Shown here in pieces: positions 2 to 51,435 of a DNA stretch of 64,000 bases. The notes beneath the pieces were generated by a model. That model was given only the letters and a program-made list of their open reading frames with translations, ran no database searches and was not told where the DNA came from. This stretch comes from Candidatus Limnocylindria bacterium (GTDB lineage: Bacteria > Chloroflexota > Limnocylindria > P2-11E): positions 28,429-92,428 of the forward strand of contig DATDEH010000122.1 in the NCBI GenBank assembly GCA_036523395.1, in the 5' to 3' direction. Each line of letters begins with the position of its first letter. Positions within the stretch are counted from its first letter, which is position 1. Position numbers and translations under genes: made by a program.

Positions 2-913
2 GACGGCGCCTTCTTCAAGGGGAACGATCTCGCGGTCGTCGGCGGCGGCGACAGCGCGTTCCAGGAGGGTCTCTTCCTCACGCGCTTCGCGAAGAACCTG
101 CACGTCGTGCACCGGCGCAGCGAGTTCAAGGCGCAGGCGATCCTGCAGGACCGTCTGCTCGCAAAGGATCTGGTCCACGCCGTGACTCCGGCGACGGTCA
201 AGGAGATCGGCGGCGACGGCACAGCCGTGCGGTGGATGGACGTCGAACGCGCCGGAAAGGTCGAGCGCATCCCGGTCGAAGGCGTGTTCATCTTCATCGG
301 CTTCAAGCCGGTCGGCCGCGAGCTCTTCAAGGATCACATCGACCACGACAAGAACGGCTACCTCATCACCGACCAGTACATGCAGACGAGCATTCCCGGC
401 GTGTATGCCGCGGGCGACACGCGCGCGCAGCTCGCAAAACAGATCACGACCGCGGTCGGTGACGCGACGACGGCGGTGCTCCATGCGGAGCGTTACATCG
501 AGGAGCTGAAGGACATGGAGCGCGTCTTCCCCCAGGCCCCGCGCGAGGTCGTGGCCGAGACGGCAACGCATATGCGGATCCTCACGTTCCCGCCGGGCGC
601 GGCGGTCATCCGCGAAGGAGAGCGATCGGATCGGTTTTACGTCATCGCGAAGGGCGAGGCCGTCGTCGTCCAGCGCGGTCCGGATGGTGCCGAGCGCACC
701 TTGAACACGCTGCACACCGGCGACTACTTCGGCGAGGTCGGGCTCCTGAGCGGGCACAAGCGCAACGCGACCGTTCGAGCCAAGACATCCCTTGAGGTCC
801 TCGCGCTCGAGGACGACGCCTTCCGAAAGCTCGTGGCGAGCTCGCAAGCCACGGGTGATGAGATCGCCCGCGTCGCCGGATCGCGTCGCCACGAGGACGG
901 GGCCGCCGACTAG
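2..913 (+). CDS. 5'-partial pyridine-nucleotide-disulfide (thioredoxin-reductase-like) oxidoreductase fused to a C-terminal cyclic-nucleotide-binding (Crp-type effector) domain
   Basis: The ORF is open from the window edge (frame 2), so the listed 107..913 ORF is only its ATG-delimited tail. The N-part carries AVVGGGDSA (NAD(P) site) and GVYAAGD (FAD site), as in TrxB. From ~nt 540 it carries FYVIAKGEAVVV…GDYFGEVGLL…RNATVRA, a cNMP-binding beta-barrel. The frame is continuous throughout. Confidence 0.7.
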   Translation, partial: DGAFFKGNDLAVVGGGDSAFQEGLFLTRFAKNLHVVHRRSEFKAQAILQDRLLAKDLVHAVTPATVKEIGGDGTAVRWMDVERAGKVERIPVEGVFIFIGFKPVGRELFKDHIDHDKNGYLITDQYMQTSIPGVYAAGDTRAQLAKQITTAVGDATTAVLHAERYIEELKDMERVFPQAPREVVAETATHMRILTFPPGAAVIREGERSDRFYVIAKGEAVVVQRGPDGAERTLNTLHTGDYFGEVGLLSGHKRNATVRAKTSLEVLALEDDAFRKLVASSQATGDEIARVAGSRRHEDGAAD

Positions 914-929
914 GCCGCGATCGCGCGGG

Positions 930-1346
930 CTAGGCCGCGATCGGCGGAGCGAGCGCCTTCACGCTGGCGATGAGCTCGTTCAGGTCGAAGGGCTTCTGCA
1001 GCACGTTCCGGATGCCCCGCTTGCGGAACTCGGCCCCGTTCTCCTTCGACACCGCTGTCTCGAACATGACCGGCACACTGCGGAGCCGCTCGTCCCGGTG
1101 CAGGCGGTCGTACAGCTCGAGGCCGCTCATTCCCGGAAGGCCGACGTCGAGGACGAGGAGATCCGGCTTCACCTGCTCCATCGCATGCAGTGCATCGGTG
1201 GGCCGCGTCACATGGATCGCGTGATAACCCTCTTCGTCGTTGATCACGCCCGCAAGCAACTCGCCGATCGGCCTGTCGTCCTCGACGACGATGACGATCC
1301 GCGTGCGCGCGTGACCGCTTGCAACCATGCCTTCAAGGCTGCGCAC
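930..1346 (-). CDS. single-domain response-regulator receiver (CheY-like)
   Basis: IVIVVEDD acidic pocket, phospho-acceptor Asp in LLVLDVGLPGMSG, conserved T/K. There is no output domain. It is the last gene of the minus-strand operon. Confidence 0.75.
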   Translation of the reverse strand: MRSLEGMVASGHARTRIVIVVEDDRPIGELLAGVINDEEGYHAIHVTRPTDALHAMEQVKPDLLVLDVGLPGMSGLELYDRLHRDERLRSVPVMFETAVSKENGAEFRKRGIRNVLQKPFDLNELIASVKALAPPIAA

Positions 1347-1469
1347 GGCGTGCCACGCCCTGGGATCGCTACGCCGGTAGTGCGTGGTTACTGCAACGGT
1401 CGTGTATCGGCGGACAGGGACACTTTGCGCGCGGCGATCATCTCAGCACGAAGATGGCGTGTTTTCGAG

Positions 1470-1862
1470 TTATCGGTCTTTATGCGTGCGCTTAGCGTGC
1501 GGGGGCAGATATTGATCGATCACGGCGCGGAGCTGCTCCGGGTAATACGGCTTCGCGAGGAATCCATCGCACCCCGCGGCGATCGCGCGCTCACGATCCG
1601 GTGGTGTCGCGGACGCCGAGACAGCGACCATCCGCAGGTCTTTGCCCCACGTCTCTCTGCGCACAGCGCGCGCGAACGCGTAGCCATCGAGCCGCGGAAT
1701 GTGCAAGTCGAGGAGGATCAGCTGTGGATGCGTCGCCTGCGCGACCGCGAACGCGGTCTCGCCGTCCATCGTCGTGATGGGCTCGTGGCGGGCCAGCCGC
1801 ACGATGCGGAGTGCGAGGTCCATGCTCGATGCGTCATCTTCGACGATGAGGATGCGGGCCAT
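1470..1862 (-). CDS. single-domain response-regulator receiver (CheY-like)
   Basis: MARILIVEDD…LILLDLHIPRLDG…AVSA…K, a canonical REC fold. Its ATG overlaps the stop of the upstream NYN gene (TGATG at 1860-1864). Confidence 0.75.
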   Translation of the reverse strand: MARILIVEDDASSMDLALRIVRLARHEPITTMDGETAFAVAQATHPQLILLDLHIPRLDGYAFARAVRRETWGKDLRMVAVSASATPPDRERAIAAGCDGFLAKPYYPEQLRAVIDQYLPPHAKRTHKDR

Positions 1863-3583
1863 CAGTCGGCTGCTTCCGTCCCCGTTCCCGCGGCCGTCGT
1901 CTTGTTGCGCCCGCGTCCACCGCGACGCCTTCCGCCGCGCGACCCGCGTCGCGTGCGCTTGCGTGGCAGGGCAGGCGTTCCGTTCGTAACTGGACCACTC
2001 GCCGGCGCCGCTAGCGCTGGCGCGGGCTCGCCCTCGTCCTGGTCGTCGGTCTCCGACGCGGCAGTAGTCACCGTCACGACGCGCTCGACAGCATCGCCGT
2101 TCAGGCCGCCAAATTCTCCGAGGACGGTACGCGCTTCCGGGTGGTCGCGTGTGACGACGAAGCCGGCCTTCTTGCCGTGGTCCTCGGGCTTCATGATCCC
2201 GCGCTCCACGGCGCTGCGGATGTTCGACTCGAGCGCGTCGCCCTCCACTCGCGACAGGAGCTCCGCGAACAATGCGGCATTGACCCAGTCCGCGCGGTCG
2301 CCGCGTGCACGTGTCGTGCTGACGAAGTTGAAGAGGTGCGCGATCGCAGCAGCCGGCTGACGTGCGTACATGACGAGCGGATGGTCATCGACGAGCCAGC
2401 ACATCGTGATCTCGCGCCCATCGCGCTGGACCGACTCGCTCTGGATCGCGCCGCGCTCCTCGGCGATGTTGAAGAGCGTCTCCAGCAGAACGCGACGCTG
2501 CGTCCGACCACGCGCGATACCGCCCGGCTGGTCCGCGCGCGAGAGCGGATCGAGGACGGCCTCGACGACCGGTACGCGCTTGGTGTCTTTCGTGACGGTG
2601 TTGATGCGACGGAGGAGGCGCACGAAGTGGAAGTAGGTCTCAGCGACGAGCGGGGAGCTGAAGTTCGGCGAGAGCAGCTGCTTCGCCTTTGCGCGCATGC
2701 GGCCCTCGAGCTTCGCCTCGATGTGGTGCTGTTCGATCGCCGCGTCGATCCTCTCCTCGAGGACGCTGGACGCTTCCTTCTCGGAGAGCGGCACGACCGA
2801 GCGGACGAAGTCGCCGCGGGCCATCGATGAGGCATGAGTCGCCACCAGCTGGTCGAGCAGGAGGACCGCGAGTCGCCGCTGTTCCTTATCGGATTCGGGC
2901 GCCGCGGTGGGAACGACGGCCGGCACGACCGGCGGCGTTGCTCGTATCGCGCGCCCTCCGCCACCGCGGCCGCTGCCGCCCCGCCGAGCGCGCGTACGCG
3001 CAGCGGCGGGCTCTTCGGGACGCCGCTCTTCCTTCCCGAACTGCGTGTCGTCGGCGCGCAGGCCTCCGCGAGTCCAGCGGGCCTCGGGTATCAGGTCCTC
3101 GAGCAGGAACACGTCGTCGCGAAGGTGCGGGGACTCACGGAGCTCGTTGGCGAGAGAAAGATCGCCCGCGACGAGATAGACCTTCTTGTCTTCGTCCTTG
3201 AGCGCCTTGCACAGGGCGTTGAGATCGCGGTCACCGGAAACGATGAACCAGACCTCGATGTCCGGACGATCCTTGTAGAGGAGCTTCATCGCGCGCGTGA
3301 TCAGGACCGCGTCGGACCGGCCTTTGAGGAGCCGGCCGCTCATGCGCTGCGCCACCGGGATCGGCTCCATGCCGGTGAACTCGAGCGCCATGAGCAGCGT
3401 CTCGTCCTGCATCGCGACCTCCTGTCCGAAGATCGCGAGCTTCACGCGGACGGGGCCGAATTCGGCGGCTTTCTTGAGGATCGCCTGCAGGATCGCGAGT
3501 GATGACGGCAGCGGTCCTGTGGTGTGCTGCCGCAGCGTGTAGTAGACGTTCTCCCAGTCAATGAGGAGAGCGACGTCGGGCAA
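1862..3583 (-). CDS. NYN-domain (PIN-like ribonuclease, LabA-type) protein with Arg/Gly-rich linkers and a ~300-aa C-terminal domain
   Basis: LLIDWENVYYT…VSGDRDLNAL…VAGD is the NYN/LabA signature. A TTG at 3583-3581 is preceded by GGAGA (3590-3594), giving a ~574-aa product. The listed 1154-aa ORF 1862..5326 is a high-GC run-through that would overlap tldD. The RG-rich tails (…RRGGSGRGGGGR…, …[15 protein letters not shown]…) flank a central helical region. Confidence 0.6.
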   Translation of the reverse strand: MPDVALLIDWENVYYTLRQHTTGPLPSSLAILQAILKKAAEFGPVRVKLAIFGQEVAMQDETLLMALEFTGMEPIPVAQRMSGRLLKGRSDAVLITRAMKLLYKDRPDIEVWFIVSGDRDLNALCKALKDEDKKVYLVAGDLSLANELRESPHLRDDVFLLEDLIPEARWTRGGLRADDTQFGKEERRPEEPAAARTRARRGGSGRGGGGRAIRATPPVVPAVVPTAAPESDKEQRRLAVLLLDQLVATHASSMARGDFVRSVVPLSEKEASSVLEERIDAAIEQHHIEAKLEGRMRAKAKQLLSPNFSSPLVAETYFHFVRLLRRINTVTKDTKRVPVVEAVLDPLSRADQPGGIARGRTQRRVLLETLFNIAEERGAIQSESVQRDGREITMCWLVDDHPLVMYARQPAAAIAHLFNFVSTTRARGDRADWVNAALFAELLSRVEGDALESNIRSAVERGIMKPEDHGKKAGFVVTRDHPEARTVLGEFGGLNGDAVERVVTVTTAASETDDQDEGEPAPALAAPASGPVTNGTPALPRKRTRRGSRGGRRRGGRGRNKTTAAGTGTEAAD

Positions 3584-3883
3584 AGGGGTTCTCCTATGGA
3601 GCGCACACGCCGCCCGACCCGTTCGCGGACCCCTCCCGGAGTCACGCGCTAGTTGCTCACCCTCGTCCCAAACGCTCCTTGGCTCACGAGATCCGTGATG
3701 CCGAGGCGCGGCCGGTACGCGAGCGCGTCCCTCACGAACGCATTGGTCGTCGCGCGCGCCGTTTTGTTCTGATCCGAAGTGTACCCGAGAGGACCACGGG
3801 TCCGCACTCTGTAATCGGGCAGCTCCTGCTGCCCTCATCTGTTTGGCGTGTGGCCTTCGGCCACGCCACAGTAATCTTCGCCG

Positions 3884-5320
3884 GTGCCCGAGCGCGACTC
3901 CCAGCTGTCGGATCTCGTGGAGCTCGGCGCGCGGCGGGGCGCGGCTTACGCCGACGCGCGGCACGTCGAGCGCGAATTCGAGGCCGTCTCCGTGCGCGAT
4001 GGCGAGGTCGAATCGGTCACGCGATCGGGTGATCGCGGCATCGGCTTCCGAGTCGTGCACCGGGGCGCGTGGGGCTTCGCCGCGACCGATCGCGTCGACG
4101 AGTCGTCGCTCCGCACCATCGTTGACGAGGCCTTTGCGCGTGCCGAGGCCGCGGCGAGCACACGGACGCGCCAGGTGACGCTCGCGCCGGTCGCACCGCA
4201 GCGCGGCGAGTACCGGACCACGCTCGAGCGTGATCCGTTCGCCGTCCCGGTAGCCGAGCGGATCGCGCTGCTGCGGGCCGCCGACGCCAACCTGAAAGGT
4301 CCGCATGCGGTGTCGCGCCGCGGGAGTATCGCCGCGTACCGCACGCGCAAGCATCTCGTGACCAGCGAGGGCACCGACGTGCGGCAGGAGATCGTCGAGT
4401 CCGGCGCCGGCGTGAGCGTCACGGCGGTGAAAGCCGGCGCGAAGCCGGCGCAGCGCTACGACGGCCGCCTCACGCGCCAGGCCGGGTGGGAGTTCATCGA
4501 GCACCTCGATCTCGCCGGCCGTGCCGCCCGCTATCGCGACGACGCCGAGGCGATGCTCGACGCGCCGCTTGCCGCGGAGCGCCCCACGACGCTCGTCTTC
4601 ACGCCCGAGTTCCTCGCCCTGCTCGTGCACGAGTCCTGCGGTCATCCGACCGAGGCCGACCGCGTGCTCGAGTACGAGGTCGCGTTCGCGGGCACGACCT
4701 TCATGTGGCCGAAGGATCGCGGCGCGCTCCGCTACGGTTCTGAGCACGTGTCGATGACCGCCGACGCGACGGTCCCCGGCGGCATGGGCACGTTCGGGTG
4801 GGACGACGACGGCGTCCCGGCGATGCGCACGAAGCTCATCGACCGCGGCACGTTCGTGGGCTATCTCACGTCGCGTGAAACGGCGGCCGCGCTCGGCGTG
4901 CCGGTCGCGATCGGATCCGCGCGCGCCGAGGGCTGGCAGCACTTTCCCATCGTGCGCATGGTGAACGTCAGCCTGGACCCCGGGAGGCAGAGCTACGACG
5001 CGCTCATCAAAGGGGTGGCGGAAGGCCTGCTGATGGAGTCGCCCGCCTCGTATTCGCTCGACGACAAACGCCAGAACTTCCACTTCTCGACGCAGTCCGC
5101 GCGCGTGATCCGGAACGGTGTGCTCGAGGGCTACGCGCGCGGCGTCTCGTTCCAGTCGCTGACTCCCGCGTTCTGGGGACGCTGCGACGGCGTCGCCGAC
5201 GACTGGGAGCTGCACGGCTTCCTCTCGTGTGCCAAGGGCGAGCCGCTGCAGCTCATGCGCGTCGGGCACGGCGCCGCGCACGCACGCTTTCGCGACGTGC
5301 CGATCGAGGTCCGCGGATGA
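3884..5320 (+). CDS. tldD: TldD-family metallopeptidase/modulator
   Basis: HESCGH zinc motif, GADYAD.R N-terminus and ~480-aa length. It is paired with a pmbA homolog downstream. Confidence 0.8.
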   Translation: MPERDSQLSDLVELGARRGAAYADARHVEREFEAVSVRDGEVESVTRSGDRGIGFRVVHRGAWGFAATDRVDESSLRTIVDEAFARAEAAASTRTRQVTLAPVAPQRGEYRTTLERDPFAVPVAERIALLRAADANLKGPHAVSRRGSIAAYRTRKHLVTSEGTDVRQEIVESGAGVSVTAVKAGAKPAQRYDGRLTRQAGWEFIEHLDLAGRAARYRDDAEAMLDAPLAAERPTTLVFTPEFLALLVHESCGHPTEADRVLEYEVAFAGTTFMWPKDRGALRYGSEHVSMTADATVPGGMGTFGWDDDGVPAMRTKLIDRGTFVGYLTSRETAAALGVPVAIGSARAEGWQHFPIVRMVNVSLDPGRQSYDALIKGVAEGLLMESPASYSLDDKRQNFHFSTQSARVIRNGVLEGYARGVSFQSLTPAFWGRCDGVADDWELHGFLSCAKGEPLQLMRVGHGAAHARFRDVPIEVRG

Positions 5321-6681
5321 CCGCACGCGGCCGCGACGCGATGCTCGCGCCGCTCCAGGACGCGCTGCGCGACGCGAAGGGCGACGAGGCCGAGCTGTGG
5401 GTCCATCGCCGCCGCTCGGCGATCACCCGGTACGCGAAGAACGAGATCCACCAGAACGCCGTCGCCGACGAGACGCACGCGCAGGCTCGAGTCATCGTCG
5501 GAAAGGCCATGGGGATCGCGAGCGGGAACTCGCTCGACCCCGCTGAGCTGCGGCGTCTCGTTGGCGACGCCGCCGCGGCAGCGCGCGAGAGCGCACCGAA
5601 CGCCGAGTGGCCCGGCCTCTCCGAGCCCGGCCCGGCGTCGGAGCCGAGGTCGTATGACGCCGACACCGCACGAGCGGATGCGGCGGACCAGGCCGATGCG
5701 ATCAAGCGCATCACCGCCGCGGCGAAGGCGCGTGGCTTCCGGGCCGCAGGCACGCACCAGATCGAGCTCACTGAGGATTCGCTCGCGAACACGAACGGCG
5801 TCGGGAGGTATGCGCCGAGCACGATGGCCTACCTGCGGGCGCTGGTCACGAGCGACACCGGGACGGGTTGGGCGGAGGATCTCGGCTGGAGCACACGCTC
5901 GCTCGATGCCGACGGCGTGGCAGCACGCGCGATCGAGAAGGCCGCGCTCAATCGGGACCGCACGCAGCTCCCGCCGGGCGACTACGAAGCGGTGTTCGAG
6001 GAGCTCGCGGTCGCGGAGGTCCTGCGTTTCATGTCCTTGACCGGGCTCACCGGGCTGACGCTCAAGGACGGCCGCTCGTTCATGAAGGACCGGTTCGGTG
6101 AGCAGGTGACAGGTCAGCGCTTCTCGCTGTGGGACGACGGGCTCGACGACCGAACGCTCGCGATCCCTTTCGACGTCGAGGGCACACCCAGGCAACGCGT
6201 CGCACTGGTCGAGACCGGCGTCGCGAAGGGCGTCGTCCATGACCGTCAGTCCGCGAAGTGGTTCAACACGCGTTCCACCGGGCACGCAGCGGATCCGCGG
6301 CGTTACGGAGTCGGCGGCCATGCTGGAAATCTGACGATGGCCGGCGGCGACGCGAAGCGCGAGCAGCTGATCCGCGCGGTGAAGCGCGGCGTGCTCATCA
6401 CCCGCTTCCACTACACGAACACGCCCGACCCCAAGCGTGCGACGATGACGGGGACCACACGCGACGGCACGTTCCTCATCGAAGACGGCCGCATCACGCG
6501 CGCCCTTGCGAACGTCCGGTACACCATGAGCGCGCTCGACCTGTTCGCGGGCATCGACCTGCTGGGGCCGCAGCGGCTCGCGCGCGACTGGTGGTCGTCC
6601 AACGGGATGGGCTCGATCGTGTGCCTCTGCCCGCCGATGAAGGTGTCGCGCGCGACCATCACTGGCTCGAGCCCGATCTAA
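5317..6681 (+). CDS. pmbA: PmbA/TldE-family protein
   Basis: ATG 5317 overlaps the tldD stop (ATGA). It has TldD/PmbA-fold conservation (…RFHYTNT…). The listed ORF start 5227 is upstream run-through. Confidence 0.75.
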   Translation: MTARGRDAMLAPLQDALRDAKGDEAELWVHRRRSAITRYAKNEIHQNAVADETHAQARVIVGKAMGIASGNSLDPAELRRLVGDAAAAARESAPNAEWPGLSEPGPASEPRSYDADTARADAADQADAIKRITAAAKARGFRAAGTHQIELTEDSLANTNGVGRYAPSTMAYLRALVTSDTGTGWAEDLGWSTRSLDADGVAARAIEKAALNRDRTQLPPGDYEAVFEELAVAEVLRFMSLTGLTGLTLKDGRSFMKDRFGEQVTGQRFSLWDDGLDDRTLAIPFDVEGTPRQRVALVETGVAKGVVHDRQSAKWFNTRSTGHAADPRRYGVGGHAGNLTMAGGDAKREQLIRAVKRGVLITRFHYTNTPDPKRATMTGTTRDGTFLIEDGRITRALANVRYTMSALDLFAGIDLLGPQRLARDWWSSNGMGSIVCLCPPMKVSRATITGSSPI

Positions 6682-9766: not shown

Positions 9767-9811
9767 ATTGCGCGCATGGTATAGAAGACACCGCGCACAG
9801 GGAGGACTTCG

Positions 9812-10249
9812 ATGAAGTGGATCACCCGCGAACACCCGCGCGTGGATCGCGTCGCGTGTCCGTGGCTCATCGAACGGTTCGTCGACAAGAAGGCGGAGTT
9901 CGTCTACGTACCCGCTGACCAGGTCGCGGCGGAAGCGAAGCGGCGCGACGCCACGCCGTACGACATCAAGGACGTCGAGCTCGGGCATCATGGGGCGGAG
10001 TGCAGCTTCGACGCCTTCGTGCACAAGTACGCTCTCGACAAGGATCCCGCGATGATCTACATGGCCAGGGTCATACGCGGCGCCGACACCGCCGACAAGA
10101 CCATCACGCCGGAGTCACAAGGGGTCGAGGCCTTGCTCGACGGGGTGCGTCGTCTCCATTACTCCGACGACCAGAAGCAGCGGGAGGCTTCACGACCGCT
10201 CCTCGACGCGCTCTACGCGTACTGCAGGGAGAAGGCCGGGAAGAAGTGA
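9812..10249 (+). CDS. ChrB-type 'chromate resistance' C-terminal-domain protein
   Basis: WITREHPRVDRVACPWLIERFVD…EFVYVP matches the Chrome_Resist (ChrB C-terminal) domain pattern. It lies directly 3' of the chrA remnant. Confidence 0.5.
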   Translation: MKWITREHPRVDRVACPWLIERFVDKKAEFVYVPADQVAAEAKRRDATPYDIKDVELGHHGAECSFDAFVHKYALDKDPAMIYMARVIRGADTADKTITPESQGVEALLDGVRRLHYSDDQKQREASRPLLDALYAYCREKAGKK

Positions 10250-11158
10250 CGCTGCGTCGCCTCGCCTTCGTCGAGGTGCCGCGGGGCGCGAAGCCCGGCT
10301 TCGATCACGCGGACGTTCTCGTCGCGCCCGCGGGAAGCCGCATGTACGTCGCGCACACCGGTGACGACCGGGTCGACGTCTTTGACTGCGGCGAAATGCG
10401 TACCTCCGCGCTCTTGCGGGACACCCAGGCGTGGCTGGGTGCTGGTCGACGCGGAGCGCGATCTGCTGCTGACGACGGATCGGGGCTGCGCGCGACTGTC
10501 GATCTGCCGGGCCTCCGACGAGAAACTACTAGGTCAGGTCCCCGTCGGAGAGCGGCCGAACGGTGTCGCGTTCGATTTCCAGCAGAGCCACGCGTACACG
10601 TTCGATCTCGGCGACCTGCCCGGCGTCGGATGCACGTCCACGATCGTCGATATCGCAACGCGCACCGTCATCGGCCGCGTTGCCCTTCCCGGACGGCCGC
10701 GGTGGGCGCTGTACGACCCGGTGTCACTCGCGGTCTACGCGAACATCAGCGACCCGCCGTGCATCGTCGTGATCGAGACCAATGAGCGGAAGATCGGCCG
10801 GGTGATCGACGTCCCGTCTGCCGGACCGCATGGTCTCGCACTCGTCGACCACTCGCTGTTCTGCGCGACCGACGCCGGCGAGCTGATCGTCGTCGCCCGC
10901 GACGGCCGCCTTCGCGCACGGCTGAAGCTCGCCGCCGCGCCCGACGTCGTGATGTTCGATCGTGGCCTGAGGCGGCTTTACGTCGCGACCGGCTCTCCGG
11001 GCCTGGTGCAGTCGTTCGACACCACAGACCTTCGGCTGATCGAGACGATCGAGACCGAGGAGGGAGCGCACACGATCGGCTGGGATCCAGACCTGCGCCG
11101 CCTCCGGGTGTTCGCGCCTACGTCGTGCGGAGCATTCGTCTATGAGGACGCGGCATGA
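10246..11158 (+). CDS. YVTN-type beta-propeller repeat protein; apparent +1 frameshift near 10425-10440 (possible pseudogene or sequencing error)
   Basis: GTG 10246 overlaps the upstream stop (GTGA). Frame 1 encodes …RMYVAHTGDDRVDVFD… up to ~10430. Frame 2 continues with propeller blades (…PNGVAFD…, …RLYVATGSPGLVQSFD…) to 11158. Both halves are repeat-like. Confidence 0.5.
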
Positions 11159-18460: not shown

Positions 18461-19705
18461 ATGCTCGCACGCGCGCGGGAACATTCCGGCGGCCTCTATC
18501 TGTTCGTCGCGTCGTCCGTCGCGAACGTCCTCGGCTTCGGCTACCAGATCGTCATGGCGCGGCTCCTCCGACCCGAGGAGTACGCCGTGCTCACCGCGCT
18601 GTTCGGCATCCTGATCCTCGAGTCGATCTCGAGCCAGGTGATCCAGTCGGCGACCGCCAAGCTCGCCGCGCAGTACCGCGCCCGCGACGAGGAGGCCGCC
18701 CTTCACGCGTTCGTGCGCCGCTGGGCCGTGCGCGTCGGTGGCGGCGCCGCCGCCGTCGGGCTGCTTGTCGCGGCGCTCTCTGGCGTGATCGCGGGGGCGC
18801 TCGCGCTGCCCGCGCTATCCGTCGCGCTCCTCGGCCTGACGCTGTTCCTCGCGCTCGTCTTCACCTTCGGCCTCGGACTGCTCCAGGGTCTCGCGCGTTT
18901 CGTGTGGATGGGGTCTGCGCTTATCGCGCAGGCCGGCGGCCGTCTCGCTGTGGGCGTCGCCCTCGTTCTCGCGGGCCTCGGTGTAGATGGAGCGTTCACG
19001 GGCGCGACCGCGGCGATCGCGATCAGCCTCGTGGTCGTGGCGGTGCCGCTCGTCCCGCTGTTCCGCGCCGCCCGTGGGAGCACCGCGATACACGAGCTCG
19101 GGCCGGCGGAGACGCGCTTCTTCGCGCTTTCGGCGGTCGTGTTGCTCGCGTACGCGGCGCTCACGAACATCGACGCGGTCCTGGCGCGTTCGCTGCTGCG
19201 GCCGGAGGACGCCGGCGCCTACGCCGGCGCCATCACGATGGGGAAGATCGTCCTCTTCGCGCCGATCGCGATCGGCTTCCTGCTCCTCGAACGCACCGCG
19301 CGCACGCACGCGCGCGGCGAGGACACGGACCGTGCCCTGTATCTCGCGCTCGCGTTCGTGCTCGCCACGAGCGGCTTCGTCGCCGTTGCGTACATCCTTG
19401 TGCCGGAGTTGCTCGTGCCGCTCGTCGTGGGCACGCAGTACCCAGAGACCGCGAAGATCGTCGGCACATATGGGGTCGCCGCGCTCGCGAACGCCCTGCT
19501 CAACCTGTGGATCTCGTACTTCATCGGGCGCGGTGAGATGCGGGTCGGACTGCTGCTGGCCGCCGCGGTCGTCGCGGAGCTCGTGCTGTTGCTGACGAAC
19601 GCGACCGATCCGCTCGCTATGGCGCGCATCGTTCTCGTCGTCGCGCTCGCGACACAGGCCGCTGCGGTGGCGACGTTCGTCGTGAGGAAGGCGCGCGCGG
19701 GCTAG
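18461..19705 (+). CDS. polysaccharide/oligosaccharide flippase-like transporter (MOP superfamily, Wzx-like)
   Basis: ~12 predicted TM helices, a polysaccharide-biosynthesis-protein-like N-terminus, 414 aa. Confidence 0.5.
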   Translation: MLARAREHSGGLYLFVASSVANVLGFGYQIVMARLLRPEEYAVLTALFGILILESISSQVIQSATAKLAAQYRARDEEAALHAFVRRWAVRVGGGAAAVGLLVAALSGVIAGALALPALSVALLGLTLFLALVFTFGLGLLQGLARFVWMGSALIAQAGGRLAVGVALVLAGLGVDGAFTGATAAIAISLVVVAVPLVPLFRAARGSTAIHELGPAETRFFALSAVVLLAYAALTNIDAVLARSLLRPEDAGAYAGAITMGKIVLFAPIAIGFLLLERTARTHARGEDTDRALYLALAFVLATSGFVAVAYILVPELLVPLVVGTQYPETAKIVGTYGVAALANALLNLWISYFIGRGEMRVGLLLAAAVVAELVLLLTNATDPLAMARIVLVVALATQAAAVATFVVRKARAG

Positions 19706-20397
19706 AGTGCGGTCGCGTCCACCAAGCCGTTGCGCACGGCGTAGATCGCGGCCTGCGTGCGGTCCGAGACGTTCAGCTTTTCGAGGATCGCCGCGACGTG
19801 GCTCTTCACCGTTTCCGGTGAGAGCACGAGCTTGTCCGCGATCTCGCGGTTGGAAAGACCTTCGGCCACGAGTCCGAGGATCTCGCGCTCGCGCTTCGTG
19901 AGATTCTTCGCCGCGGAAGGCACGGGGCCCGCAGGCTTCATCTCGCTCAGCATGCCGCGAAGCAGCTTGGACTCGATGAACGCGCCGCCGGTGGAGACCT
20001 GACGGATCGCGTCGACGAGCTCTTCCTTTGAAACGTCCTTCAGGAGGTAGCCGGCAGCGCCGGCGCGCACGGCGTCACGAAGGTAGGAGGGGTTGTCGTG
20101 CATGGTGACCATGATCACCGCGGTGCGCGGTCGCTCCTCTTTGATGCGCTTGGTGGCCTCGAGGCCGTCCATGTCCGGCATGCGAACGTCCATGAGGACG
20201 ACGTCGGGCAGATCCCGGCGCGTGGCCTCGACGGCCTCGCGGCCGGTGCGCGCTTCACCGACGACCTCGATACCGTCGGCGTTGAGGAGCATTGCCGCGA
20301 CGCCCTGTCGGACCAGCTCGTGGTCGTCGACCAGCAGTACACGTGTGGCCACGGGCTGATTGTACGGTCCTCGGACGATGGAGCTCACCGCCGACAC
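19702..20397 (-). CDS. NarL/FixJ-family response regulator (REC + LuxR HTH)
   Basis: VLLVDDH…VLMDVRMPDMDG…K receiver, and a C-terminal LuxR-type HTH (LTKREREIL…SPETVKSHV). Confidence 0.8.
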   Translation of the reverse strand: MSAVSSIVRGPYNQPVATRVLLVDDHELVRQGVAAMLLNADGIEVVGEARTGREAVEATRRDLPDVVLMDVRMPDMDGLEATKRIKEERPRTAVIMVTMHDNPSYLRDAVRAGAAGYLLKDVSKEELVDAIRQVSTGGAFIESKLLRGMLSEMKPAGPVPSAAKNLTKREREILGLVAEGLSNREIADKLVLSPETVKSHVAAILEKLNVSDRTQAAIYAVRNGLVDATAL

Positions 20398-20407
20398 TCG
20401 ATGGTGG

Positions 20408-20854
20408 TCAATACAGCGCGAGCCAGATGAGATAGATCACGAGCAGGATCCCCGCGAGCCCGAACAGAACCACAACGACAGTACCGAGCGTGCCGAGCGC
20501 TAACTGCGAGTTGGGGCTGCCCACAACGCCGTCGATCATCTTCGCGAACTCCGCCGCGGTCGCGTCCTTGCGCAGCCATCCGCGCCCCTCGGGTAGCCGT
20601 CGCAGAAGTGCGCGGCCGTCGGACTCCGTACCCGACAACACCAGGGTCGGTGTGCCGAGGTGGATGTTGGCGCGTCCCGTCAACAGCGTGCCGTCGATGA
20701 GCGCGACGTTGGGACGCCAGTCGCGGATCGCGGCAGCCTCGGCAGCGCTCGCGACACGCCGCACGTCATAACGCTGCTCGAGTCGCAGCAGGGTTTCGAT
20801 GCCCGATCCGATGACGGGGTGAGCGACGACCAGAAGAACCCGTGTTTGGGCCAA
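20408..20854 (-). CDS. atypical receiver-like domain protein with C-terminal TM anchor
   Basis: VLLVVAHP…NVALIDGTLL has a REC-like topology but degenerate acidic-pocket residues. It ends in a hydrophobic helix (VVVVLFGLAGILLVIYLIWLALY). It sits 10 nt upstream of the LuxR RR. Confidence 0.4.
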   Translation of the reverse strand: MAQTRVLLVVAHPVIGSGIETLLRLEQRYDVRRVASAAEAAAIRDWRPNVALIDGTLLTGRANIHLGTPTLVLSGTESDGRALLRRLPEGRGWLRKDATAAEFAKMIDGVVGSPNSQLALGTLGTVVVVLFGLAGILLVIYLIWLALY

Positions 20855-21002: not shown

Positions 21003-26438
<5,436 letters not shown>

Positions 26439-30757: not shown

Positions 30758-30864
30758 CCGAGAGGTCCTGGTGACCCGAGCGAAACGGCAAACCCGTCGC
30801 GAGGCGGGGACGCAAAGCCTCCGGACTCACAGAGTTAGCGGGGTTACCGAAACGAGGATGAGCG
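30758..30864 (+). promoter_or_regulatory. conserved ~105-nt 5' leader, copy 1 (candidate cis-regulatory RNA, possibly ydaO/c-di-AMP-type riboswitch)
   Basis: cccgagcgaaacggcaaacccgtcgcgaggcggggacgcaaagcctccggactcacagagttagcggggttaccgaaacgaggatgagcgATG. It is ~80 % identical to the leader at 32151-32257. Differences cluster as would be expected for compensatory stem changes. Confidence 0.45.
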
Positions 30865-32034
30865 ATGAAGAGCCTTCTGAAGATCGCGGGCGTGGGCGCC
30901 CTCGCACTGCTGGCACTGATGTTCGTCTTCCGTGTTCAGGCCAGCGCGAACGACGGCCCCTCTTGCGCCCCGACGGCCGGTTTCGTCCCCATGTTCTGCG
31001 TCAACGTGCCGGTGGGCACGAGCGTGCGTCACGAGACCACCGTCCCTCTGTCGACGGTCCTCACGACCCGCGCCGACGTCCGCGTCGAGTCGGGTATCCC
31101 GGCTCCCGAGGTCGTGCGCCTCGCCTCCAGTGTCGACATCGCCATCAGCCGCATCGATCAGGTCTTCGATCGCTCGTTCACGGCCAAGCCGCGGATCCTC
31201 GTCTTCGCGACGCGCGTGAGCTTCGCACGTGGCACGCAGGACCTCTTCGGCTACTCGCCCGAGACAGCGGCGAACGTCGCGGCTTCATACGGTGGCGTGT
31301 TCGACCCGCAGACGCTCACCATCGCACTGAGCTGGCAGTCGACGGCGGGCTCGAATCTCCCACGTCTTCTCACTCATGAGCTGACGCACCTCGCGACGCG
31401 CGAGCTCGTCGGCACCGACGCCGTGCTGCCGGCGTGGTTCGAAGAAGGCCTCGCCGCGGAGATCGAGGCGGGCGATGCCGGCATCGACAAAGACGCGCAG
31501 CTCGCGGCGCGCTCGCTTCTCGCCAACGCTCCACGCACGCTCGACACGGTCGGCACGCTTGCCGACTGGCACCGCGAGTATGCGAAGCTCGGGACCGCCC
31601 TCTACGCCGTCTCCGCCGAGCTCGTCGGAGCGATGGAAGCGCAGATCGGTCGCGGCACGATGTTCGCCCTCCTCGCCGATGTCGGACACGGGGTGCGTTT
31701 CGAGGATGCCTACCGCGCACGAGCGGGTGAAGACCTCGCTGCGCTCCTGGCCCGCTTCACCGCCGGTGCCGCGTTCCAGCCCACGGTCACGGTGGGGACC
31801 GTCCCGGACAGCAACGGCAACCTCCGATGGACACTCACTGGATTCGCCCCCAACAGCGAAGTGCGGATCACGATCTCGGGCACGAGCTACGACCTGGGTT
31901 ACTCGCTCCACACCGACGGGATCGGGATGCACCGCGGCACCTTCGGATCGACTGCGGCACCCGGGTCTTACACCCTGACGGCGAGGAGCACGAGCTTGTA
32001 CGCGACGGGCACGATCGACACGATGTCGCGCTAG
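30865..32034 (+). CDS. secreted HExxH-motif protein (putative zinc metallopeptidase)
   Basis: Signal peptide MKSLLKIAGVGALALLALMFV. THELTHL (HExxH) with a downstream EEGLAAE. ~390 aa. Confidence 0.55.
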   Translation: MKSLLKIAGVGALALLALMFVFRVQASANDGPSCAPTAGFVPMFCVNVPVGTSVRHETTVPLSTVLTTRADVRVESGIPAPEVVRLASSVDIAISRIDQVFDRSFTAKPRILVFATRVSFARGTQDLFGYSPETAANVAASYGGVFDPQTLTIALSWQSTAGSNLPRLLTHELTHLATRELVGTDAVLPAWFEEGLAAEIEAGDAGIDKDAQLAARSLLANAPRTLDTVGTLADWHREYAKLGTALYAVSAELVGAMEAQIGRGTMFALLADVGHGVRFEDAYRARAGEDLAALLARFTAGAAFQPTVTVGTVPDSNGNLRWTLTGFAPNSEVRITISGTSYDLGYSLHTDGIGMHRGTFGSTAAPGSYTLTARSTSLYATGTIDTMSR

Positions 32035-32150: not shown

Positions 32151-32257
32151 CAGAGAACGAAGTCTGGCCCGAGCGAAATGGCAAATCCGCCGCGAGGCGG
32201 TGACGCAAAGCCACCGGACTCTTCGGGTCAGCGGGGCTCCCGAAACGAGGATGAGTA
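32151..32257 (+). promoter_or_regulatory. conserved 5' leader, copy 2 (candidate riboswitch)
   Basis: cccgagcgaaatggcaaatccgccgcgaggcggtgacgcaaagccaccggactcttcgggtcagcggggctcccgaaacgaggatgagtaATG. Confidence 0.45.
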
Positions 32258-32977
32258 ATGAGATCTGTTCTTACGGCCGCTGGCGCCGGGATGCTGATGC
32301 TCTTCAGTCTGGTCTTCGTCTCGGCCGATCAGGCCAGTGCGAATGACGGTCCCCTCTGCACCACGACCGTCGGCTTCCTACCGACGCTCTGCGTGAGCAT
32401 CCCGCTCCCCGCAATCGTGCGGCGAGATGACGCGATCCCCACGACCGTCGCGAAGGATCGGACCGTTACGGCGCCGCAGGCTGACATCGCTCCGCGAACT
32501 GTCGAGATCGAACCAGGTGCGTCCGATATCCAGAGCGAGCCTGAGCGGGCGCAACCCGAGGCCCGAGCGCTCGAACCTGTATTCGACCTCGATGACCTTC
32601 GCGCTTACGCGCGCGACGCAGCCATCAGGCAGGGAATCGACCCCGTCCTCTTCGTGCGTCAGATCGATGCGGAGTCGGCGTTCGACCCGAACGCGGTCTC
32701 GAAGGCGGGCGCCGTCGGTATCGCGCAGCTCATGCCGGCACTGCATCCCGCAGTTGACCCCACCGATCCGTACGCGTCGCTGGATTACGCCGCGCGGCTC
32801 ATGCACGTGTACATCGCGCATTTCGGGAACTGGCGTCTTGCGCTCATCGCCTACAACGCCGGCCCGGGCCGCCTCATGCCTGGGAATCCCGCGTACCTGC
32901 CGACCTCGACGCTCCTCTCGAACTCGTTCGGCGGCGGTGAGACGAAGCGCTACGTCGCGAGGGTCCTCGGCCGTTAG
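32258..32977 (+). CDS. secreted lytic transglycosylase (SLT domain)
   Basis: Signal peptide. SLT catalytic block ESAFDPNAVSKAGAVGIAQLMP…YNAGPG. Its N-terminal 50 aa are homologous to the N-terminus of 30865..32034. Confidence 0.7.
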   Translation: MRSVLTAAGAGMLMLFSLVFVSADQASANDGPLCTTTVGFLPTLCVSIPLPAIVRRDDAIPTTVAKDRTVTAPQADIAPRTVEIEPGASDIQSEPERAQPEARALEPVFDLDDLRAYARDAAIRQGIDPVLFVRQIDAESAFDPNAVSKAGAVGIAQLMPALHPAVDPTDPYASLDYAARLMHVYIAHFGNWRLALIAYNAGPGRLMPGNPAYLPTSTLLSNSFGGGETKRYVARVLGR

Positions 32978-32986
32978 CGCGAGCTG

Positions 32987-33667
32987 CTAGCGGGCGGAGT
33001 CCTTCTCGAGCATGCCGCGGTTGTGCACGAACAGCGCGGCCTGCGTCCGATCCGTGAGCTCGAGCTTGCTGAAGATGTTGGAGATGTGCGTCTTCACGGT
33101 GCGCTCGCTGATGCCGAGCTGCGCGCCGATCTCCTTGTTCGCCCGACCGCTGGCGACGAGTCGCAGCACCTCACGCTCTCGCGGCGTGAGATCCGAGTAC
33201 ACATCGGTCTCTGACGACGGTGTTCCGCTGCGCAGCTGTCCGAACTCGTCTAAGACGCGGCGCGCGACCGACGGGTAGATGAGCGAGAAGCCGTCGGCCA
33301 CGGTGCGGATCGAGTTCGTGAGCTGCGTTGCGGTGACTTCCTTTAATAGGTAACCCGACGCACCGGCCCGGATCGACGAGAACACGAGATCGTCCTCGTC
33401 GTAGTTCGTCAGCACGATGACACGGGCCGACGGGACGTAATTGCGCACCCGCCGCGTCGCGGTGACGCCGTCCCAGTCGCCCATGTTGATGTCCATCAGC
33501 ACGACGTCCGGCAGCAGCTCTTGCGCGAGCTCGAGCGCGGCGTGGCCGTCGCCCGCCTCGCCGACCACTTCGATGTCCGGCTCGGTCTCGAGGATCGTGC
33601 GGAGACCGCTCCGGACGACGGCGTGGTCGTCGACGATGAGGATCCTGATGCGGCGCTTCTCGTTCAT
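32987..33667 (-). CDS. NarL/LuxR-family response regulator
   Basis: RILIVDDH…VLMDINMGDWDG…, LuxR HTH (LTPREREVL…SERTVKTHI). The ATG overlaps the upstream kinase stop (ATGA). Confidence 0.8.
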   Translation of the reverse strand: MNEKRRIRILIVDDHAVVRSGLRTILETEPDIEVVGEAGDGHAALELAQELLPDVVLMDINMGDWDGVTATRRVRNYVPSARVIVLTNYDEDDLVFSSIRAGASGYLLKEVTATQLTNSIRTVADGFSLIYPSVARRVLDEFGQLRSGTPSSETDVYSDLTPREREVLRLVASGRANKEIGAQLGISERTVKTHISNIFSKLELTDRTQAALFVHNRGMLEKDSAR

Positions 33668-39669: not shown

Positions 39670-39788
39670 CACCGGGCTGATCCAGCCCGAAGGTCACCTC
39701 GTGCTCGGCATTCGGTCCTGATTCAGTCCTGGTTAAGCGTCGTCCTCCGCGTCGCCACGTTGTAAACGTCGAGACGGGGAGGTAGGCG

Positions 39789-40493
39789 ATGCAGACACCC
39801 AGCACTGCGTTGCTCGTCGAGGACGATCCCCAGGTCGCGGCGACGCTGCGACGTCATCTGGCGCGCGCGGGCTTTGTCGTGTACGACGCGAGCAATGAGC
39901 GAGAGGCCGTTCATCGCGTCGAAGAGATCGCGCCCGATGTCGTCATCCTCGATATCGCGCTCGACAGCGGTGGTGCGGACGCGTGCCGCCGCATCCGCGA
40001 GCTTGCGTCCGGTGGCGACGTCCCGATGCTCGTGCTCTCGGCCGCGCAGGACGTGACCACGAAGCTCGCGGCGTTCGAGCTCGGCGCGGACGACTTTGTC
40101 ATCAACACCTGCGACCCATCAGAGCTGCTGGCCCGCGTGCGCGCGATCCAGCGTCGTGGCGCTGATCGCCGCACGGTGCGGCGCATCGGTCCGCTCCGCA
40201 TCGCGCTCGCGACCGGCGACGCGTGGCTTGCCGATCATCAGCTCGATCTCACGAACGGAGAGCGCGCCGTGCTGGTCGAGCTCGCTCGCGCGTATCCCGG
40301 TCTCACCGCACGCACGGCGCTCGACCGCCGGCCCGACCAGGAGCACGAAGTGAGCTCGAACGTGACCGAAGTACTGGTCGCCCGCCTGCGTCGAAAGATC
40401 GCGGCCGCGGGCGGCGGCGTGGAGATCAACGCGGTCCGGCGGTCCGGTTATGTGCTGCGACCGATGGCGACCACCGCAGACATCCCCGTCTAG
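39789..40493 (+). CDS. OmpR-family response regulator
   Basis: ALLVEDD…VILDIALDSGG…, C-terminal winged helix (…RSGYVLRP). GGGGAGG SD. Confidence 0.75.
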   Translation: MQTPSTALLVEDDPQVAATLRRHLARAGFVVYDASNEREAVHRVEEIAPDVVILDIALDSGGADACRRIRELASGGDVPMLVLSAAQDVTTKLAAFELGADDFVINTCDPSELLARVRAIQRRGADRRTVRRIGPLRIALATGDAWLADHQLDLTNGERAVLVELARAYPGLTARTALDRRPDQEHEVSSNVTEVLVARLRRKIAAAGGGVEINAVRRSGYVLRPMATTADIPV

Positions 40494-51397: not shown

Positions 51398-51435
51398 TTC
51401 CTGCTGCCGACCTAGGGGTCGGAGGTGCAAGCGCA

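Follow-up and report, generated by a model that had tools for sequence, protein, structure and literature searches.

The gene on the minus strand at positions 1862..3583 of the 64-kb stretch of DNA analysed here (the window) encodes a nuclease-type protein of 573 aa, in which an N-terminal NYN domain is combined with three predicted winged-helix domains and two boxes rich in arginine and glycine, and it is preceded by a structured 5' leader RNA that is newly described here. We hypothesize, with moderate confidence, that the product is a lineage-specific endoribonuclease of the Limnocylindria that is expressed under the control of its own leader, possibly through feedback. The features that a sequence-only reading of this DNA had described are all present, on the minus strand. 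That reading had also recognized that the product is shorter than the 1154 aa of the raw ORF (1862..5326), the 5' part of which overlaps a plus-strand TldD/PmbA gene (3884..5320) identified with Pfam; its figure of 574 aa, however, includes the stop codon (TGA, 1864..1862). Relatives of the protein (n=303; 488–591 aa among the 120 listed) are 555–590 aa long in the comparison that set the start, and those aligned all begin at M/L-PDVALLIDWEN; the true start is therefore TTG 3583. This TTG is kept in relatives, and AGGAG lies 7 nt upstream of it.

The NYN domain (LabA-like, PF01936; aa 1–165, 3089..3583, minus strand) was assigned from Pfam, Foldseek and the family alignment. The PF01936 match scores 49.3 bits against a cut-off of 24.2 and spans aa 4–150 over profile positions 2–136 of 145, and the AlphaFold model (pLDDT ~70–87 in this domain) predicts a PIN-like alpha/beta/alpha fold in which no helical insert follows beta2. 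Only two structures matched with E<=0.001 in Foldseek, 2QIP (E 2e-4, target TM 0.68), the best match, and the NYN domain of MARF1, 5YAA (E 4e-4, target TM 0.74). The Pfam score and these two matches bear out the NYN/PIN-like nuclease fold that had been proposed from the sequence. No NCBIfam model matches the protein. Sequence searches of the PDB were uninformative: a profile of the whole NYN family gave nothing at E<=1, and the single-sequence search gave 2QIP at E=0.026 only, with the alignment not displayed, alongside alphaRep repeat matches on an L.KALKDED stretch that were discarded as spurious. The catalytic residues were therefore mapped through secondary structure and the MARF1 paper. 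The putative active site comprises D9, N12, E55, D91, S116, D118 and D120, which fall, as in MARF1, where beta1, beta2 and beta4 end and where a helix begins; the first six match MARF1 D178, N181, D215, D246, S270 and D272, a correspondence set by secondary-structure position and not by superposition, in which the acidic residue of beta2 is Glu, not Asp. These six are invariant in an alignment of 30 sequences, and D120 is likewise counted invariant. The sequence-only reading had made its nuclease assignment depend on the catalytic aspartates, and the alignment finds the catalytic positions intact. In MARF1, each of four aspartates is required for RNA cleavage. The domain is also the most conserved part of the protein (80–99% identity across the family; 53–79% in the winged-helix region), and we infer that the protein is a nuclease and that RNA is its substrate.

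The region that follows had been described as a helical domain of ~300 aa. The region is real, but in the models it is not purely helical; it is predicted to form three alpha/beta winged-helix domains on the minus strand (aa ~232–306, 2666..2890; aa ~311–397, 2393..2653; aa ~412–487, 2123..2350). Outside the NYN domain, full-length modelling with AlphaFold gave poor results (mean pLDDT 53), whereas cropping to aa 226–498 and adding sister-clade sequences gave a predicted H-b-H-H-b-b pattern with pLDDT 92 and pTM 0.91. Foldseek returned weak matches to multi-winged-helix proteins, and the fold matches include the DNA-binding MarR and PadR as well as the multi-winged-helix scaffolds RPC62, ESCRT-II, MAGE and ScpB. 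The suggestion of an OST-HTH/LOTUS domain was thus right as to the winged-helix fold class but not as to detectable membership, as PF12872 did not match the full protein (E<=0.1), the C-terminal regions of 31 members had no Pfam match at all (E<=5), and no LOTUS structure was recognized among the 50 Foldseek matches listed. A search of 1.84 billion representative proteins with the ~265-aa C-terminal region found 29 matches, all of them fragments of the same family, so that at the level of sequence the predicted winged-helix module is without detectable relatives outside the family. Winged-helix domains bind DNA or proteins more often than RNA.

Both RG-rich stretches that had been pointed out, one after the NYN domain and one at the C terminus, are conserved. 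Box 1 (ARTRARRGGSGRGGGGRAIR; aa 195–214, 2942..3001, minus strand) lies within a disordered linker (pLDDT <50) and has R198, R201, G202 and G203 invariant; a Pro/Val-rich motif (PPVVPAVVPT...; aa 217–231, 2891..2935, minus strand; mean majority-residue frequency 0.85; P217, P218, P221 and P225 invariant) stands directly ahead of the winged-helix array. Box 2 (aa 539–560, 1904..1969, minus strand), with 15 invariant positions between R541 and G558, is followed by a conserved C terminus ending in EAAD, and the sister clade also has it, as TRRGSRGGRGRR. Arginine and glycine make up 70% of box 1, 73% of box 2 and 18% of the whole protein. Across 207 family members the mean majority-residue frequency is 0.77 in box 2 against 0.21 and 0.27 in the flanking linkers, the former value being that of a hypervariable acidic linker (aa 496–538, 1970..2098, minus strand) whose length differs among relatives. 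Because box 2 is conserved while the linkers are variable, the boxes are no artefact of GC composition, and sequence conservation supports both as selected features. Arg/Gly boxes typically bind RNA. Literature searches on bacterial RGG ribonucleases, and on Limnocylindria together with ribonuclease, found nothing relevant.

Relatives of the NYN protein were found in species-representative genomes in 88 cases, nearly all in Limnocylindria or Chloroflexota. Throughout the main clade (~70 species) the position of the gene is fixed, with divergent TldD/PmbA genes on one side and a convergent TrxR-cNMP gene on the other. The family is restricted to the Limnocylindria, and its inheritance is vertical and housekeeping-like.

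The leader (3584..3767, minus strand) occupies the ~185 nt directly upstream of the NYN gene, or 171 alignment positions, and its structure was deduced from covariation in alignments A4 and A6. A long-range helix P1, a helix P2, a variable inner domain and a hairpin P4 are followed by the Shine-Dalgarno sequence GGAG, which the conserved structure leaves unsequestered. The covariation shows a conserved RNA structure, modelled with 27 pairs; the paired cells amount to 96.6%, and compensatory change is seen at 13 pairs; none of 500 shuffles attained the observed values, slid partners were 31–52% paired, and a plain MAFFT alignment gave the same covariation result. G:U pairs place the leader on the sense strand of the NYN gene. 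RNAalifold on the MAFFT alignment gave P1 and a four-pair helix only, and P2 and P4 came from clade comparison followed by pair counting; an alternative pairing from an exploratory helix scan, CGCGCU(44–49):AGCGCG(126–131), was dropped because it clashes with the P4 extension and crosses P2. The fold energy of the single sequence is unremarkable (z = -1.27). The unpaired stretches GGGUGAGCA, GAACGGGUC and AAAACGG are highly conserved, and a possible alternative or pseudoknot pairing, GCUC:GAGU, has 99% of cells paired.

In the 944 kb searched, which is ~0.94 Mb mostly near NYN loci, the covariance model of the leader scored 90–161 bits only directly upstream of NYN genes, and the next best score was at most 19.4 bits. 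A metagenome scan with a two-block pattern of the leader gave no true leader among the 80 loci listed (best 20 bits), a result that says nothing of copies elsewhere. Rfam 15, RNase E 5' UTR and riboswitches included, had no match at E<=10 on either strand of 3540..3900; at gathering score, the only Rfam matches within the window are one tRNA and two c-di-GMP-I riboswitches. A -10-like hexamer, TACACT (3778..3783, minus strand), lies immediately before the leader, and TACACT/TAGACT-like hexamers occur at that alignment position in many relatives. A consensus scan found no full sigma-70 promoter; the hexamer is the likely promoter of the NYN transcript.

Two stand-alone receivers, RR1 (130 aa; 1470..1862) and RR2 (132 aa; 930..1328), lie downstream on the minus strand. 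As had been noticed from the sequence, the stop of the NYN gene overlaps the ATG of RR1 in TGATG (shared base 1862). A second receiver had been placed 120 nt further on; it is present, but the alignment sets its start at the conserved ATG 1328, not at GTG 1346, and the gap is 141 nt. The view that neither has an output domain also holds, PF00072 being the sole significant Pfam domain in RR1 (71 bits; its other match is sub-threshold only, 15.7 bits vs 23.6) and in RR2 (75 bits), and no NCBIfam model reaches its cut-off for the receivers. Residues E8, D9, D10, D52, S82 and K104 of RR1 are invariant in 61 homologues (some sources name RR1 homologues DivK or CheY-like), and E16, D17, D61, T91 and K112 of RR2 are invariant in 55 orthologues of 46–84% identity, in which position 18 is D or E.

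Gene-neighbourhood conservation, which the sequence-only reading had proposed as a check, does not hold for the receivers. RR1 directly follows the NYN gene in 11 of 69 evaluable species-level loci, plus L086/L087; all 11 belong to the window's shallow clade and share 87% or more NYN-protein identity with the window, and within this clade the two genes are coupled at offsets of 3–24 nt. A homologue of RR1, 67% identical, sits in a kinase cluster elsewhere in a genome whose NYN gene has no receiver neighbour. An RR2 orthologue is found downstream of the NYN gene on the same strand in 55 of the 69 loci, directly adjacent in 28, after RR1 in 11 and behind an insert of ~1.4 kb in 16 (in L001, a 403-aa MFS transporter), and it is absent from 14. 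At evaluable loci the flanking genes, TldD and TrxR-cNMP, are present more often than RR2, a pattern that fits inherited gene order; RR2 is ancestral. The sister clade has a NYN protein of the same architecture and neither receiver gene. The suggested search for a cognate kinase likewise gave no histidine kinase in the 64 kb, where no H-box or G2-box motif was found, and phmmer searches of the window with two proteins of kinase type and a hybrid receiver-HATPase_c protein from locus L084 hit receiver domains only.

It had been said that receivers belonging to a separate transcription unit would speak against joint control, and for RR2 a conserved promoter-like motif of its own points to such a unit. 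A sigma-54-type -24/-12 motif, TGGCACGCCGTGCGCA (1340..1355, minus strand), places its -12 GC ~12 nt ahead of the ATG of RR2. Of 55 species loci, 51 have GGCAY-N7-GC upstream of RR2, vs 0.057 expected per 170 nt; this element agrees with the sigma-54 pattern (TGGCAC-N5-TTGC-like) in the 10-nt spacing of GG and GC and in its fixed, short distance from the gene, and it is kept whatever gene is upstream. A second non-coding block upstream of RR2, CCGATACACGACCGTTGCAGTAAC (1387..1410, minus strand), is conserved in the RR1–RR2 spacer of 12 loci, the rest of which is variable, and related GATGA...GTAACGG blocks are found in other clades; the block is possibly a regulator-binding site. No RpoN-box was found in the partial genome sequence searched. 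The only GAFTGA ORF in the window (18461..19702), considered as a sigma-54 activator, has no Pfam match and was rejected as a sign of sigma-54 machinery.

These results bear directly on the proposal of phosphorylation-controlled RNA processing, in which one or both receivers, phosphorylated by an unlinked kinase, would bind the NYN protein and control RNA degradation. Both receivers retain every phospho-acceptor residue, RR1 is translationally coupled to the nuclease in the window's clade, and RR2 is its same-strand neighbour in most loci; single-domain receivers (CheY, DivK, CpdR) act through protein–protein contacts. However, RR1 occurs at the NYN stop only among close relatives and has a homologue in a kinase cluster of a genome with a receiver-free NYN locus, RR2 is missing or distant in many loci, carries its own motif and shows a pattern of absence that fits inherited gene order, the sister clade does without either, and the window has yielded no kinase. 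The coupling of RR1 thus stands, while the receivers as a conserved part do not, and we consider a phospho-switched nuclease unlikely. Since the receivers are patchy, RR2 has its own motif and no kinase was found, phospho-control is possible only for RR1 in the window's clade. Whatever part they may play, the receivers look like optional neighbours and not like part of the NYN machine. Two further readings concern the protein itself. PIN-like nucleases are common in toxin–antitoxin and defence systems, but scans of plasmids (tblastn), PADLOC and viral contigs gave no match for the NYN protein, and a mobile toxin or anti-phage defence nuclease of this type was therefore rejected; the fixed chromosomal position in ~70 species, the lack of an antitoxin-like partner and the strong purifying selection on the sequence also make it exceedingly improbable. 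A nucleic-acid-binding regulator or scaffold that does not cleave, whether a winged-helix regulator binding DNA or an output-pathway factor of the LabA kind, would agree with the fold matches to MarR, PadR, RPC62, ESCRT-II, MAGE and ScpB and with the LabA-type proteins: nuclease activity is unproven for these, including LabA, the bacterial founding member of PF01936, and a survey of the PIN superfamily from 2017 listed the function of the LabA-type group as unknown. Against this, the residues at the catalytic positions are all invariant in what is the most conserved part of the protein, and Arg/Gly boxes are typical RNA binders, so that we think such a regulator very unlikely.

A small-molecule riboswitch or another trans-acting factor would explain the leader equally as well as feedback does. 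Were the leader to act as a riboswitch, or to be recognized by some other regulator (a protein or sRNA), production of the nuclease would follow a metabolite or stress signal and not the nuclease's own level. The long multi-helix fold, conserved unpaired stretches such as occur in ligand pockets and the GCUC:GAGU pairing are consistent with this, and the two c-di-GMP riboswitches in the window indicate that this organism makes use of RNA-based control. As a rule, a riboswitch class serves several genes, whereas the motif precedes only the NYN gene in the sequence searched; there is no Rfam match, and no terminator or Shine-Dalgarno-sequestering expression platform is evident. We regard control by such a signal as doubtful, if possible. 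Our current working hypothesis is that the NYN domain is the metal-dependent catalytic module, that the compact array of three winged-helix domains would serve as a platform binding substrate or partner, and that the two Arg/Gly boxes on flexible linkers may add non-specific RNA affinity, the mode of working resembling that of MARF1, in which NYN cleavage needs the winged-helix LOTUS domain, and of bacterial LabA-type NYN proteins. The NYN mRNA would carry the ~185-nt leader, ending a few bases before the Shine-Dalgarno sequence, and a weak TTG start codon; the structured leader and the conservation of this weak start suggest that expression is therefore controlled in cis. The likeliest form of such control would be feedback of the protein on its own leader, which we infer by analogy with RNase E, RNase III and PNPase. 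In the shallow clade RR1 would be co-translated with the nuclease and could modulate it, and RR2 would be a neighbour gene transcribed separately. A bolder version, in which the protein is the central RNA-decay endoribonuclease and scaffold of the Limnocylindria, a functional analogue of RNase E/Y on a NYN core that senses its own level by binding or cutting the leader, recruits RNA and partners through the Arg/Gly boxes and winged-helix platform, and is tuned by RR1 through a phosphorelay in the window's clade, seems to us quite unlikely.

There is, as far as we are aware, next to no experimental knowledge of bacterial PF01936 NYN proteins, and the Limnocylindria protein offers a clean test case, with an intact active site under very strong selection, a well-modelled predicted triple winged-helix module without sequence relatives and two conserved Arg/Gly boxes. 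The gene-specific leader, with its strong covariation, is a testable candidate substrate or ligand. If feedback is true, it would mean that RNA metabolism is under NYN-based control in soil and freshwater bacteria of an abundant, uncultured class, and a new family of cis-regulatory RNA would be added. The receivers call for caution, in that a stop/start overlap in one genome hinted at an integrated signalling module, while comparison of ~70 species shows the association to be recent and optional.

Bacterial NYN proteins fused to OST-HTH exist. Among known systems, the MARF1/DNE1-type NYN endoribonucleases are similar in having NYN with the same Asp/Asn/Ser positions followed by modules of winged-helix fold, and cleavage by MARF1 depends on its RNA-binding winged-helix LOTUS domain. 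Unlike these eukaryotic proteins, the Limnocylindria protein is bacterial and limited to one class, has no OST-HTH Pfam match and no LOTUS recognized among the fold matches listed, and is predicted to carry three winged-helix domains in a compact array, with two Arg/Gly boxes and no RRMs. It shares its Pfam family with the bacterial LabA-like NYN proteins (PF01936/COG1432), one of which, VPA0982 (2QIP), is the best structural match, yet VPA0982 is a single-domain chain of 165 residues and the Limnocylindria protein has 573 aa with a ~265-aa C-terminal region. RR1 and RR2 resemble stand-alone CheY/DivK-type receivers in having a single PF00072 domain with a complete phospho-acceptor pocket, but no chemotaxis, DivL/PleC or phosphorelay partners are near them. 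The E. coli rne 5' UTR and the rnc and pnp leaders belong to autoregulated ribonucleases, and the present leader is likewise a long, conserved, structured and gene-specific 5' UTR before a predicted ribonuclease gene; it differs from them in having no match in Rfam, rne5 included, and feedback in the Limnocylindria is a presumed one. Finally, the Arg/Gly boxes are short, conserved and strongly basic runs in disordered linkers, resembling eukaryotic RGG boxes and the Arg-rich segments of RNase E and of DEAD-box helicase tails, but here these putative RNA-binding elements are attached to a NYN nuclease-type domain.

The NYN gene (3583..1862) and the genes for the two stand-alone receivers 3' of it, RR1 and RR2, all lie on the minus strand of the window. 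The raw ORF (1862..5326) would encode 1154 aa; this long frame is an artefact caused by the high GC content, and upstream it runs across a TldD/PmbA gene of the plus strand (3884..5320) that carries three Pfam domains. Because the relatives are 555–590 aa long and all aligned ones begin M/L-PDVALLIDWEN, the start was assigned to TTG 3583, with AGGAG 7 nt upstream, giving a product of 573 aa; the sequence-only reading was thus right to make the protein far shorter than the raw ORF. This TTG (3581–3583, minus strand) is kept in nearly all of about 70 species, a few having GTG or ATG, and GGAG always precedes it. The conservation of so rare a start codon suggests that translation initiation is deliberately limited. 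RR1 (1862..1470, minus strand) is a 130-aa receiver whose ATG does overlap the NYN stop codon, as TGATG. A second receiver, the 132-aa RR2, follows as described earlier, although at 141 nt rather than about 120 nt, since its start, judged from 12 aligned loci, is the conserved ATG 1328 (minus strand) and not GTG 1346. Downstream of the receivers lies a convergent gene (107..913) for a thioredoxin-reductase-like protein that has a cNMP-binding domain, and two divergent TldD/PmbA genes (Pfam) lie upstream of the NYN gene.

Residues 4–150 of the protein match the NYN family (PF01936) in Pfam with 49.3 bits against a cut-off of 24.2; beyond this domain no Pfam family matched the protein, nor did any NCBIfam model. 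The full-length AlphaFold model is good in the NYN domain only, and Foldseek gave two PDB matches with E≤0.001, namely 2QIP (a Vibrio LabA-like protein) and the NYN domain of MARF1. RNA cleavage by MARF1 requires each of D178, D215, D246 and D272, with N181 and S270 also conserved, and these residues sit at the ends of β1, β2 and β4 and at a helix start. Mapped by secondary structure, without superposition, they correspond to D9, N12, E55, D91, S116 and D118 here, with one Asp-to-Glu exchange. These positions are invariant across the family, in keeping with the catalytic site that the initial NYN assignment had presupposed.

The middle of the protein had been taken for a helical domain of about 300 aa. 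When aa 226–498 were modelled separately from a more diverse alignment, three consecutive winged-helix domains forming one compact body were obtained instead (pLDDT 92, pTM 0.91). Against the PDB, Foldseek found weak matches to this array (query TM below 0.3), all to other multi-winged-helix proteins (RPC62/Rpc82, Dcc1, ESCRT-II, MAGE, ScpB and MarR/PadR regulators). The suggestion that an OST-HTH/LOTUS domain might be found here gained no support from these searches: no LOTUS entry was recognized among the listed PDB matches, and the winged-helix regions of 31 members stayed without a Pfam match at a cut-off as loose as E≤5. When 1.84 billion representative proteins were searched exhaustively with phmmer, 29 matches were obtained, every one a piece of the same family. 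The Arg/Gly-rich stretches are real features, both by composition (70 and 73% R+G, against 18% for the protein overall) and by conservation between linkers that vary in length and sequence; within the C-terminal box, PRKRTRRGSRGGRxRRGGRGR, 15 positions are invariant, and a sister clade with the same protein architecture retains TRRGSRGGRGRR in its place. Two database searches each returned about 300 clusters, all of full-length-type relatives and annotated no further than "LabA/DUF88" or "NYN domain-containing protein [Candidatus Limnocylindria]". Nearly all of the 88 relatives in a species-representative genome collection come from Limnocylindria or Chloroflexota MAGs, and the few oddly labelled ones look like binning errors. 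Identity across the family is 80–99% in the NYN domain and 53–79% in the winged-helix region. Plasmid, viral and defence-family searches with the NYN protein gave no matches.

The phospho-acceptor pocket is complete and invariant in both RR1 and RR2, which are only 23% identical to each other. Of the 69 species-level loci whose downstream sequence is long enough, 11 have RR1 at the NYN stop itself and RR2 after it; the NYN proteins of all 11 share at least 87% identity with that of the window. An RR2 orthologue alone follows the NYN gene by about 100–530 nt in 28 loci, RR2 stands behind an insert of about 1.3–1.8 kb in 16, and no receiver follows in the remaining 14; RR1 without RR2 occurs in one related lineage. 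The insert in locus L001 is a 403-aa MFS transporter gene (9788–10999), which is found between the NYN gene and RR2 there and in 16 other loci (e.g. L018, L020 and L041). In L001 it starts only 18 nt past the NYN stop, so lying close to the NYN gene is no sign of a common function. The RR2 orthologues are 46–84% identical to that of the window, which, together with fixed flanking genes, fits inherited gene order. The sister clade has no receivers at the NYN gene, whose neighbours there, by ORF reading, are a Fur-like regulator and metal-uptake (Znu-like) genes. Both receivers are facultative neighbours of the NYN gene, and RR1 may be a modulator that the clade of the window recruited recently. 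The earlier proposal of phosphorylation-controlled RNA processing by a receiver operon keeps the overlap of the RR1 start with the NYN stop in its favour; against it stand the presence of RR1 at only 11 of 69 loci and a promoter-like motif belonging to RR2 itself.

Nor was a cognate kinase found near the receivers: searches by kinase motifs and phmmer detected no histidine kinase in the whole 64-kb window. Further receiver-domain ORFs (stop-to-stop; phmmer) lie at 19705–20436 (minus), 32990–34081 (minus) and 39786–40490 (plus). The genome GCA_035651155.1, whose NYN gene (locus L028) has no receiver, carries an RR1 homologue of 67% identity on L084/L085 (6001–12390), adjoining a HATPase_c protein, a dCache-HAMP-GAF-HisKA-HATPase kinase and a hybrid receiver-HATPase_c protein. 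RR1 strongly resembles the first receiver of this hybrid (phmmer, E=4e-37), and the cluster offers a lead to a kinase family that may act on RR1.

The RR1–RR2 spacer, aligned for 12 loci, varies except for two blocks. One is a −24/−12 (sigma-54-type) motif, TGGCACGCCGTGCGCA (1355..1340, minus strand), with its GC about 12 nt ahead of the RR2 ATG. In the 150 nt upstream of RR2, 51 of 55 loci carry GGCAY-N7-GC (0.057 expected) and two further loci a GGTAY variant, and the motif is present whether RR2 is preceded by RR1, by the NYN gene or by the MFS transporter gene. Because it is there whatever gene lies upstream, RR2 is most likely a separate transcription unit and, on this sequence evidence, an independent gene; the inclusion of the receivers in the NYN transcription unit is accordingly unlikely for RR2, and for RR2 only. 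The other block, CCGATACACGACCGTTGCAGTAAC (1387–1410, minus strand), lies 30–60 nt upstream of the motif, and its equivalent in other clades (loci L044–L077) reads GATGATTGCACG...GTAACGG...GTSAC. It is partly palindromic and may bind an activator or a repressor. At 51097–51112 (plus strand) the sigma-54 consensus is matched perfectly (TGGCACG-N4-TTGCA), about 330 nt ahead of the gene for a CBS-pair protein (51430–51876). With the RR2 motif, this site suggests that −24/−12 promoters are in use in this organism. Sigma-54-like matches opposite the ORF at 21036–26435 are chance products of its GGC-ACC-GGT codon repeats. That plus-strand ORF encodes 1800 aa with an N-terminal receiver, MshEN (c-di-GMP-binding), FecR and long collagen triple-helix repeats. 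Two c-di-GMP-I riboswitch aptamers also occur on the plus strand, at 30777–30851 (65.5 bits), just upstream of a Peptidase_MA_2 protein gene (30865–32031), and at 32170–32244 (60.9 bits), just upstream of an SLT lytic transglycosylase gene (32258–32974).

From about position 3767 to the NYN start, conserved blocks alternate across the family with variable hairpins. RNAalifold predicted a long-range helix with compensatory changes, and clade comparison added helix P2 and hairpin P4. Pairs were tested in a MAFFT alignment (55 sequences, 31 pairs) and a covariance-model alignment (68 sequences, 27 pairs), in which 95.9 and 96.6% of cells, respectively, hold standard pairs, falling to 33–47 and 31–52% when partners were slid by 1–3 columns. 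Changes on both sides affect 9 and 13 pairs, and 96 and 122 cells against shuffled means of 27 and 31. None of 500 shuffles matched the observed cell count and covariation score in either alignment; with MAFFT, 69 of 500 shuffles attained the number of doubly changed pairs and none attained any of the other four measures. The frequent G:U pairs show the RNA to be in the NYN sense. Scored with a covariance model of 171 positions, the stretch immediately upstream of the NYN gene reaches 90–161 bits in the main clade and 26–39 bits in a few divergent lineages; elsewhere in the 944 kb of sequence searched, no hit exceeds 19.4 bits. The loci listed by a metagenome scan included no true leader. Hits directly upstream of sister-clade NYN genes are weak (L072 826–900, 13.5 bits; L073 5904–5980, 16.3 bits), and some blocks there, e.g. 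GCGGCGCGUG, are shared with the main-clade leader, which may predate the main clade and be much diverged in the sister clade. The 3' strand of the closing helix stops a few bases short of the Shine–Dalgarno sequence. GCUC and GAGU/GGGU (leader alignment A4, columns 47–50 with 175–178; window about 3723–3726 with 3616–3619, minus strand) are complementary in 99% of cells and would pair across P2 as a pseudoknot or an alternative leader conformer; their changes are one-sided only, hence covariation is neutral on this pairing.

The most economical reading is that the protein is a lineage-specific, leader-controlled NYN endoribonuclease. Our working hypothesis is that its synthesis would be controlled by a structured leader of its own together with a weak start codon. 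As to what acts on the leader, we favour feedback by the NYN protein itself, RNase E, RNase III and PNPase being analogous cases of autoregulation through an enzyme's own leader. That the leader is a riboswitch or the target of another regulator is a serious alternative. The leader had no match in Rfam, even at E≤10. Whether by feedback or otherwise, a leader-controlled NYN endoribonuclease would resemble MARF1 in its NYN domain, with matching acidic, Asn and Ser positions, and differ in having E55 where MARF1 has Asp; RNA or partners would be bound by its winged-helix array and Arg/Gly boxes, a task that falls to the LOTUS domain in MARF1.
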